NCBI GenBank assembly: GCA_944391075.1
Contig: CALXSG010000003.1
Coordinates: 22,767-86,766 of the forward strand
Direction of reading: 5' to 3'
From: an uncultured Rickettsiales bacterium
GTDB taxonomy: Bacteria; Pseudomonadota; Alphaproteobacteria; Rickettsiales; UBA1997
Length of the DNA stretch: 64,000 bases
The translations under genes were made by a program, and so were the position numbers. This document shows, piece after piece, positions 22,190 through 22,845 of this stretch (positions within the stretch are counted from its first letter, which is position 1; each line of letters starts with the position of its first letter). The notes beneath the pieces are model-generated. The model was given only the letters and a program-made list of their open reading frames with translations. It did no database searches and was not told the DNA's origin.

Positions 22190-22845
22190 ATGAAAAAGTA
22201 ACCCACCAGCTTAGCTGGTGGTTCTTCATTTTCTTTCAGCAAACTTCGGTGGGACGACAGGCTCGTGATTGCAGATGCCTTGCTTCGCAAGTCGCCTGCA
22301 TCCCGCCCACCTTGTTATTCCTTCGGCAAACTGCGCCCATAAGTCGTTGCATTTGTGCAAGCACAATGCCCCGACATTTAGGGCTTGTTATTCCTTCGGC
22401 AAACTGCGGGCATGAGTTGTCAAAGTCTCAACCAAGCTTGGACTTTTACAACATCAAGCCCTTGTTTTCAAGTCTTTTACTCTCATAAAAAACTTTTCTT
22501 CTAAATTTTGGTGCAAATACTATATGATACTTGCAATTCCACTTTGTATGTGCTAAACTTTTAATATCGTTATTATTTATCATAATAATGGTCTCCATTT
22601 GTTTATAAAGTAATAAAATAAACTATACAGCAAATCCTTAAGTATAGTTAAACAAATGGAGTATTTTTACAAGAATAAAACAAAACAAATGGAATGCGAA
22701 AACAAGCCCTGTGCGATGGGAGCTTGCTCACAATCGCAAGCCTGTCGTCAGGGCGATGTTTGCCAAAACGAAGCGGAGGACTATGTCATAATGTTTCATC
22801 GCTAAAGCTAAACTGAACCCCCAGTCTAACTGGGGGTTTTAGATG
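22190..22845 (-). mobile_element. decayed IS200/IS605-family-like element (tnpA remnant plus subterminal hairpins)
   Basis: Related imperfect hairpins lie near both ends: aacccccag-tctaa-ctgggggtt (22816-22838) and aacccaccagc-tta-gctggtggtt (22200-22223). A 5' fragment of a Y1 transposase gene lies between them. The total length of ~650 bp is similar to an IS200-type element. Confidence 0.6.
22446..22583 (-). pseudogene. tnpA: IS200/IS605-type Y1 transposase (tnpA), 5' fragment only
   Basis: Translation MINNNDIKSLAHTKWNCKYHIVFAPKFRRKVFYESKR-LENKGLML*. The first 37 aa match the conserved IS200 TnpA N-terminus (SLAHTKWNCKYHIVFxPKYRR). The HUH and catalytic Tyr regions are absent. Confidence 0.75.

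Follow-up and report, generated by a model that had tools for sequence, protein, structure and literature searches.

Positions 22225-22470 of the window (by which we mean the whole 64,000-nucleotide stretch of Rickettsiales DNA analysed here) form an island of ~50% GC in a genome of ~25% GC. A first inspection of the letters alone, which we call the sequence-only reading, had described this region as a dedicated tandem array of hairpin modules joined by a 24-nt linker. We are highly confident of a different description: the 'array' consists of a mobile DNA element, small, rich in GC and able to form a hairpin, in three head-to-tail copies inside a decayed insertion sequence (IS) of the IS200 type, in an AT-rich alphaproteobacterium of the gut. 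The three are independent insertions that an internal deletion has joined. As an explanation of the whole we favour, on balance, the view that the modules are non-autonomous mobile hairpin elements, nested in a dead IS200-family IS and mobilised in trans by a Y1 transposase. An independent assembly of a different sample (L006) contains the identical array, which excludes an assembly artefact.

Modules nested in a decayed IS200-family element

The host element, at 22193-22847 with its top strand on the minus strand of the window, was delimited by a BLAST map against a sister copy (L007) and by comparison of the flanks across eight copies. It keeps both ends, the 5' untranslated region (UTR) and the first ~43 codons of tnpA, lacks ~500 bp of that gene, and holds four nested hairpin modules (A1-A4). 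The sequence-only reading had found no protein partner adjacent to the modules. The remnant of a Y1 transposase gene nevertheless adjoins them, as an open reading frame (ORF) listed at 22446-22598 on the minus strand, of which 22470-22598 is the N-terminal part of tnpA and the final seven codons are sequence of module A3. This stump matches the Y1_Tnp profile (Pfam PF01797) at positions 2-25 with 23.3 bits, against a cutoff of 23. Its homologues are 92-100% identical; the N-terminus is 92-97% identical to two N-terminal fragments of the same IS family's transposase (P0003, P0005), and the DNA is 82-83% identical to annotated IS200-family tnpA genes on plasmids. Intact TnpA proteins of this IS (P0124 and P0127, 154-155 amino acids, from related metagenome samples) contain the HUH motif (HVHIL), RGYY and the catalytic tyrosine.

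Subterminal hairpins lie at the right end (RE; 22203-22221, ccaccagcttagctggtgg) and at the left end (LE; 22818-22836, cccccagtctaactggggg), where the terminus of the IS is 22847; both are perfect and they are similar to each other. The Y1 HUH transposase, the subterminal hairpins, the lack of terminal inverted repeats and the duplication-free insertion 3' of a fixed short sequence all place the host in the IS200/IS605 family. Eight of eight copies have a T-run as left flank and GTTACTTTT as right end. A 21-mer of the RE hairpin recurs exactly in other bacteria, for the most part gut Firmicutes, at more than 118 loci, and those matches that were examined adjoin an IS200-family tnpA. At the left end, 22774-22838 (minus strand) matches STnc490 (Rfam RF01405, an IS200 left-end small RNA) weakly, at 30.6 bits (E=0.001) against a gathering score of 56; this is below the family threshold and is a resemblance only.

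The coordinates given for the array by the sequence-only reading all hold on reading of the sequence and in pattern searches, and the closing stems that it described for its three segments are present (ggtggg/cccacc, gccc/gggc and gggc/gccc). Module A1 (22233-22319, plus strand, 87 nt) consists of the tail ctttcagcaaacttc, the hairpin ggtggg..cccacc with a 10-nt bulge, ACGACAGGCT, and ttgttatt at its 3' end. It occupies the RE site of the IS (cttcatttt|cgggc), which is empty in L007, L010 and L241. Module A2 (22320-22392, plus strand, 73 nt) is built of ccttcggcaaactgc, the hairpin gccc..gggc and ttgttatt, and module A3 (22393-22468, plus strand, 76 nt) of ccttcggcaaactgc, the hairpin gggc..gccc and ttgtttt; the covariance model R2, described below, scores them at 90 and 79 bits, respectively. 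A3 interrupts tnpA after the codons ..KRLE. In L010 and L005 nothing else is inserted at this RLE site, and the other 112 codons of tnpA continue directly after it; the site is empty in L004, L242 and L243. A2 and A3 stand in tandem within an otherwise continuous tnpA in L007, L008 and L009. The fourth module, A4 (22699-22779, minus strand, 81 nt), which the sequence-only reading called inverted, repeats this architecture on the minus strand, as cctccgcttcgttttggcaaacatc, the hairpin gccc..gggc with its ACGACAGGCT bulge, and ttgtttt. Its insertion site lies in the tnpA 5' UTR; it is missing from the otherwise 97-98% identical copies L007, L005 and L010, and scores 47.9 bits with covariance model R1 and 21.5 bits with R2.

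The BLAST map pairs window positions 22852-22779 with L007 227-300, 22699-22319 with L007 299-678, and 22233-22183 with L007 1176-1225. The window is thus collinear with L007 through LE, 5' UTR, tnpA N-terminus, A3 and A2, and resumes after a gap at A1 and RE; the ~500 bp of L007 at 679-1175 are without counterpart in the window. From this gap we conclude that A1, A2 and A3 were juxtaposed by an internal deletion.

Further copies, for which the sequence-only reading had proposed to search, are provided by L006, by a second locus of the window and by other copies of the IS. Sister contigs were chosen because they carry the same or near-identical tnpA fragments. One of them, L004, holds a module-free IS copy of about 740-750 bp, composed of LE hairpin, 5' UTR, tnpA and RE hairpin. 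Across the sister copies, GC-rich modules of 73-87 nt occupy at least eight sites of this IS, in both orientations, with matching empty sites: 5'UTR-a, 5'UTR-b, WN|CKYH, RR|K, RLE|IGK, EGE|VCP, KEDE|LSEQ and RE, the last lying between cccgaaa and atgaag (L004, L005, L007, L008, L010, L241-L246). The same module is found at different sites. A1 is at RE in the window and at WN|CKYH in L241, L244 and L245, and the window and L241 versions differ by four substitutions, which include one compensated stem pair (c-g to t-a). Another module, A5, is in the 5' UTR in L005 and L010 and at WN|CKYH in L244, with a related peptide at RR|K (P0123); a further one, A6, is at RE in L005 and L244 and nested within another module in L242. 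The peptide encoded by a second family of modules, family B (AQSPSYASLLAITNLLLG..), occurs at two TnpA sites, in IS1-like ORFs and in rve-type transposase ORFs. That identical modules stand at different sites shows that the modules move.

Insertion does not always destroy the reading frame. Family B insertions in TnpA are 84 nt long, in frame and free of stops, and add 28 codons at two sites; a variant of A3 in P0121 regained the frame through a 1-nt change, giving an insertion of 26 codons. Some TnpA variants thus bear 26-28 additional residues. A1 and most A3 copies break the tnpA frame. Among 25 protein matches to module peptides, all those with a recognisable domain are transposases. A translational bypass of A3 in tnpA (GAA take-off, GAG landing) was considered but found no support: there is no stop right after the take-off codon, and P0121 restores the frame by its 1-nt change. 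An apparent 28-codon module in GlmS (641 amino acids, against 613 in relatives) proved to be merely a different start codon. The orientation pattern within the IS, with forward modules in the left third and reverse modules rightward, is marginally non-random and is explained by the positions of T-runs on each strand. As a separate observation, these elements give rise to an annotation artefact: many short 'proteins' among public metagenome gene calls are pieces of a tnpA split by modules, or module arrays in translation (P0001-P0120, P0241-P0260); part of the short-length bias among P0001-P0120 may stem from contig ends or from the collection of candidates.

The second locus of the window contains two further modules. 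At 35000-35169 (plus strand) lies a miniature derivative of the IS, recognised through a 149-nt inverted repeat that is 97% identical to 22191-22339. It begins with the LE terminus and what is left of the hairpin there, continues with an orphan 5' tail of a module (35029-35043) and with A1 in a further copy (35044-35130, minus strand), and closes with the RE hairpin (35142-35160) and the RE terminus. Module B1 (35726-35802, plus strand, 77 nt; 92.7 bits with R1) belongs to family B and has the tail cttcgttcgtttcgcac, the outer helix GCAC/GTGC, the stem gtggg/cccac, the bulge ACGACAAGCT and an inner hairpin with the GCAAGC loop. It sits outside any IS, within AATTTTC repeats, and has an orthologue at L240 157-233, and it aligns without gaps with four other family B copies. 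The heptamer tandems (AATTTTC/AATTTTT) lie on both sides of B1, at 35687-35719 and 35803-35852. In L004 the IS is flanked by a similar AT-rich repeat (aattaag), which gene calls render as spurious ORFs (P0260).

Module architecture and covariation

Read 5' to 3' on its own strand, a family A module comprises the tail CYTTCRGCAAACTKC, the hairpin and then CTTGTT(T/A)T(T), with the 3' end CTTGTTTT, while a family B module comprises CTTCGTTCNGTTCGCAC TTY G, the hairpin and YTT GTGC TT, with the 3' end GTGCTT. The conserved 5' tail is unpaired in both families (CYTTCRGCAAACTKC in A, CTTCGTTCNGTTCGCAC in B). In DNA folds, an outer 4-bp helix (AAAC/GTTT or GCAC/GTGC) closes across a small T-rich internal loop; inside it are a GC-rich stem and then a long variable inner stem that stays Watson-Crick paired and is capped by a conserved CAAG tetraloop (GCAAGC). 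The unpaired 10-nt 5' bulge ACGACAGGCT is found in A1, A4 and family B. When folded, the modules of the window all form long, imperfect hairpins (z-scores -1.9 to -3.9).

This anatomy accounts for the supposed linker. The 24-mer CTTGTTATTCCTTCGGCAAACTGC is exact at 22311-22334 and 22384-22407, where shuffles lead one to expect 0 matches, and there are a degenerate copy at 22225-22248 (18 of 24 positions match) and a partial copy, cttgttttc, at 22461-22469, all as the sequence-only reading had reported. A further exact copy is on the minus strand (35029-35052), and a copy at 35116-35139 has three mismatches. The 24-mer is not a unit: it consists of the 3' terminus of one module and the 5' terminus of the next (..CTTGTTATT | CCTTCGGCAAACTGC..). 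Module-module junctions elsewhere read CTTGTTTT|CCTTCGG (L007) and CTTGTTGTT|CCTTCGG (L244), so modules abut head-to-tail and without spacers. The conserved core noted from the sequence, GACGACAGGCT, is confirmed at 22253 (+), 22739 (-) and 35100 (-), with a one-mismatch copy at 35750 (+), against a shuffle expectation of 0.08.

Integron attC sites vary in sequence and maintain an imperfect single-stranded DNA (ssDNA) hairpin with extrahelical bases and conserved outer boxes. This likeness, the regular 73-nt spacing and the identical 24-mers would suit a degenerate CRISPR-like or attC-like array, with 24-nt repeats between units of 49-63 nt. We find such an array scarcely credible: single modules bear both 'repeat' halves on opposite sides, the 'spacer' A1 recurs at other loci, and a Pfam scan of 40 ORFs of the window disclosed no cas or intI. 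The module termini do not fit the RYYYAAC/GTTRRRY boxes of attC, and in contrast to attC sites the modules have no R''/R' consensus, no integrase and no cassettes between them.

That the modules are real hairpin-forming units, with conserved flanks and core and covarying interiors, is borne out by the alignments. The five family B copies are each 77 nt long and align without gaps. Their hairpin model pairs 99% of cells, with 12 of 20 pairs changed on both sides and none on one side only; 0 of 500 shuffles reach these values, and controls with slid sequences drop to 31-42% paired. For a subset of family A, 97% of cells are paired and 10 of 23 pairs have changed on both sides, again with no one-sided change. 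These figures are drawn from few, related sequences, and the structures were derived from the same sequences. Across the 43 helix pairs of the two sets, one-sided changes of the G-T/G-U type number 0. Covariance models built from the two family alignments (R1 and R2) recover every known copy, and each family is detected by the other family's model. They add one family B copy, the orthologue of B1 at L240 157-233, and in the 64-kb window they find no modules beyond the known copies.

The sequence-only reading had offered the choice of a structured RNA or a DNA hairpin site. Its second half comes close to our own conclusion, while the first is unlikely, given that modules occur in both orientations relative to tnpA transcription, lie inside coding sequence and show no G-U intermediates. 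The same features of the covariation (no G-T intermediates, both orientations, presence in ORFs) argue for a constraint on the DNA hairpin, or on competence for transposition, over one on RNA. The strong covariation and conserved loops are what IS-associated regulatory or guide RNA units would show, and IS200 elements do encode small RNAs, with the weak STnc490-like match at the left end of this IS as a case in point. Beside orientation and placement, however, the presence/absence polymorphism and changing position of the modules speak against an array of non-coding RNAs, which we consider very improbable. A scan of the whole window with Rfam 15 returned only three tRNAs at the gathering score and nothing with E<0.1 over the modules, in agreement with the earlier failure to recognise an RNA family. 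The suggested TnpB/IscB neighbours or guide-RNA family did not materialise either: a Pfam scan of 40 window ORFs yielded no TnpB, IscB, cas or intI.

Beyond the lineage, R1 and R2 were run on 100 loci (624 kb) of other bacteria in which the right-end hairpin of this IS recurs and find no module there, the best E being 0.16, and a pattern (regex) search of the loci sharing that hairpin finds none. Plasmid and phage collections hold no module match, solely matches to the tnpA stump. Metagenome contigs scanned with CCTTCGGCAAACTGCGSSC gave 109 matches, none with an AT-rich context and a downstream CTTGTT; all of them look fortuitous and the pattern was too narrow, and a copy from the JGI collection found via a protein search (L246) has GAAGG after the tail. 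By these searches the module family is lineage-specific, and it seems undescribed.

Junctions, proposed mobilisation and relation to known repeats

Subtraction of empty from filled sites reveals a common junction rule. T directly precedes every module (TT at eight of nine sites), and modules end in TT(TT). There is no unambiguous target duplication, and no nucleotide need be counted twice; the 2-5 T-rich nt common to both junctions allow two readings, a short duplication or the 3' end of the element itself. The IS conforms to this pattern, its left end (GTMWYC..AAAA-hairpin) following a T-run, typically that of a terminator, in the eight copies (e.g. after rubrerythrin at ~34960-34999 and after glmS at ~22850-22890). 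In L244 (1-110) two IS copies stand head-to-tail without a spacer (..ggtgggttacttttt|GTATCCCTAAAACCCCCAG..; ggttacttttt|GTATCC). We also observed that left flanks of the IS (window 22850-22890 and 34960-34999; L004, L005, L007, L242) lie directly after a terminator-like hairpin and T-run at the 3' end of a gene. With its hairpin and TTTT, such a terminator may serve as a target by imitating the right end of the IS itself.

The 'peel-and-paste' transposition of IS200/IS605 elements (PMC3597680, PMC6006769) has as its hallmarks duplication-free insertion 3' of a short sequence, subterminal hairpins with cleavage sites a few nucleotides outside them, and ssDNA intermediates. Given that modules and IS both insert 3' of TT and end in TTTT, we infer mobilisation in trans by the Y1 transposase. 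Modules would move as single-stranded DNA hairpins acted upon by an IS200-type Y1 (HUH) transposase. A module would insert immediately 3' of TT or a T-run, bringing its own TTTT 3' end, and this end of a resident module would serve as a new target, which would explain the spacer-less tandems. Deletion by the transposase between two modules of the same orientation could have produced the precise A1|A2 junction. We advance this Y1/ssDNA route tentatively, on the strength of the junction sequences, as plausible rather than probable.

Several considerations weigh against it. The module hairpins are unlike the LE and RE hairpins of the IS; their hypervariable stems are awkward for sequence-specific recognition by TnpA, and a single hairpin would have to serve as both ends. 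The T-rich junction repeats of 2-5 nt are equally readable as target-site duplications of a DDE transposase. Most copies of the IS recovered from this lineage have a disrupted tnpA. Modules are also present in IS1-like and rve-type transposase genes and, as B1, in AT-rich non-coding DNA, and the link with IS200 may reflect only tolerance of insertion and sampling. At the second locus, L003 is orthologous to 35000-35169 and lacks A1, with 15-nt direct repeats between the two versions, and the difference may be a deletion and not an insertion. A possible imitation of the IS left end by the module tail (CAGTTT.GC) was dropped, as the similarity in family B is in the opposite orientation and probably due to chance.

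The modules belong to a known class of small palindromic selfish repeats, which includes REP/REPIN-RAYT systems (repetitive extragenic palindromes, REP), Rickettsia palindromic elements (RPE) and miniature inverted-repeat transposable elements (MITE). REP and REPIN are short hairpin repeats with an unpaired conserved 5' tag that are regarded as non-autonomous ssDNA substrates of a HUH Y1 enzyme, RAYT, and the modules resemble them in the compensatory evolution of their stems and in clustering in composite arrays (PMC3116915, PMC2817692, PMC3733652). The modules differ in length (73-87 nt against 20-40), in stems that are hypervariable between copies, and in arrays that are head-to-tail where those of bacterial interspersed mosaic elements (BIMEs) alternate. 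Their tails read CYTTCRGCAAAC.. or CTTCGTTC..GCAC, and no GTAG/CGTC tag stands at the foot of the hairpin on either strand (PMC3733652). The neighbouring gene differs too: a RAYT is present in single copy between inverted REPs, whereas this IS200 tnpA is multi-copy and has an LE and RE of its own, and modules inside the IS are polymorphic insertions, unlike the fixed REP flanks of RAYT. A more specific form of trans-mobilisation would make the modules single-hairpin hyperparasites of IS200, REP-like ssDNA elements moved by a canonical multi-copy IS200 Y1 transposase; we regard this as possible but doubtful. Under it, one hairpin would act as 'left' and 'right' end, recognition would be by shape together with a short code of tail, bulge and loop instead of stem sequence, and preferential landing in transposase genes or on IS single-strand intermediates would progressively kill the helper.

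Closer to the IS200/IS605 family are its miniature elements (PATEs), whose duplication-free insertion 3' of a short sequence and ssDNA intermediates the modules would share (PMC3597680, PMC6006769). The mini-element at 35000-35169 is literally a PATE-type derivative, with LE and RE of the IS, whereas a module has one hairpin in place of LE and RE, and the sequence of that hairpin is unrelated to the IS ends.

The modules could alternatively be RPE-like selfish repeats that spread by another route, through a dedicated enzyme encoded elsewhere or through recombination or gene conversion via the tails, with the IS copies as neutral landing pads on which insertions survive and with no role for the IS200 transposase. 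This we judge unlikely, if worth keeping in view. RPEs are palindromic selfish repeats of AT-rich, Rickettsiales-type genomes that insert into ORFs in frame and without stops (PMC10969869), as the 84-nt family B insertions do in TnpA. The host looks to be of Rickettsiales type (a 2093-amino-acid TrbL/VirB6 protein and IalB, with GapR in a relative), non-coding repeats and transposase ORFs of the IS1-like and rve types also harbour modules, and the 15-nt direct repeats of the second locus against L003 are compatible with homologous recombination. Such an origin leaves unexplained the junction rule (after TT, ending in TTTT) and the spacer-less tandems common to modules and IS, and the Pfam scan disclosed no candidate enzyme in the window. 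RPEs, with which the modules were compared by description, are ~100-150 bp long and defined by conserved sequence or peptide. They are found in housekeeping genes, whereas the module matches with a recognisable domain are all in transposases. RPEs of R. conorii carry a CGTC end tag (PMC3733652), which the modules lack.

Improbable, in our view, is that the modules are classical MITEs that one of the lineage's DDE transposases (IS1-like or IS3/IS481-like) cuts and pastes, with the arms of the hairpin as terminal inverted repeats and the T-rich repeats as duplications. Every junction allows direct repeats of 2-5 T-rich nt to be drawn, the lineage does have IS1-like and rve-type transposases, and the modules share with Correia, ERIC and RUP elements a small size, foldability, lack of coding function and frequent nesting in other repeats. 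MITEs, however, have conserved terminal inverted repeats that match the parent IS, and duplications of fixed length. The termini conserved in the modules are asymmetric (CCTTCGGCAAAC.. and ..CTTGTTTT are not mutual inverted repeats), and the inverted-repeat part, the stems, is hypervariable, the opposite of what a DDE transposase needs. The apparent duplications vary in length from 2 to 5 nt or more, and the conserved features (5' tail, 5' bulge, CAAG loop) are strand-asymmetric.

Genome context and significance

The gene content (the 2093-amino-acid TrbL/VirB6 protein, IalB, LpxC/LptD, rubrerythrin) points to a Rickettsiales-like alphaproteobacterium that lives anaerobically; the window belongs to a metagenome contig of 96.6 kb. 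The TrbL/VirB6 protein is encoded at 5612-11893, owes its domain to a precomputed Pfam label, and contains long Lys/Glu-rich low-complexity repeats; oversized VirB6 paralogues are typical of type IV secretion systems of Rickettsiales. A second LpxC-like ORF (33513-34229, 238 amino acids) is truncated, matching only positions 1-151 of the 268 in the profile; the full-length lpxC (29395-30246) is 3 kb away.

Other repeats surround the modules. Dense clusters of a different hairpin repeat are found at 21560-22010 and 35187-36305 of the window, and also at L007 1600-2450 and L240 1-117. Each unit reads (T)CGTC-ATTGCGAG-[variable small hairpin]-GTGGCAAT-CCA, in which the outer stem, ATTGC/GCAAT, is conserved, the inner hairpin covaries and CCA forms a tail. 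A CGTC-tagged REP superfamily has been described for alphaproteobacteria, including Rickettsia (PMC3733652), and the cluster repeats fit it, though they are longer and composite. The nests in which IS remnant and CGTC-tagged clusters lie together (21457-22339 and 35024-36250) are inverted copies that bracket a ~12.7-kb housekeeping segment from glmS to rubrerythrin. At the positions of the nests other strains have different neighbours (L002, L240), which suggests that the nests are breakpoints of rearrangement or inversion. A small hairpin motif of G/C runs (cctccccccttacaaagggagg; ccccttatcagggggg in L004) stands beside repeat nests at 35856-35905, L004 1040-1130, L246 1060-1098 and L240 60-110, and is possibly a third repeat family. 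A run of C (cccccccccc) lies at ~21272-21283 of the window, and in L009 a copy of the IS stands downstream of a 16S rRNA gene, at a distance of a few hundred bp.

For the scanning of genomes, the modules are a caution that strong covariation and identical 'linkers' can arise from nested mobile DNA and not from an RNA gene. For annotation, they split or extend transposase ORFs and create spurious small ORFs in metagenome gene calls. The spread of REP-like hairpins is still largely inferred from comparative genomics. In the present lineage the family is small and well delimited, many filled and empty sites occur naturally, the junctions are precise, the tandems lack spacers, and there is a plausible helper enzyme. 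The idea that a Y1 transposase moves single hairpins is here directly testable with oligonucleotides and one protein of 154 amino acids. If the modules are indeed hyperparasites of IS200, they would constitute a natural system in which to reconstitute the long-debated in vivo HUH mobilisation of REP-type hairpins.

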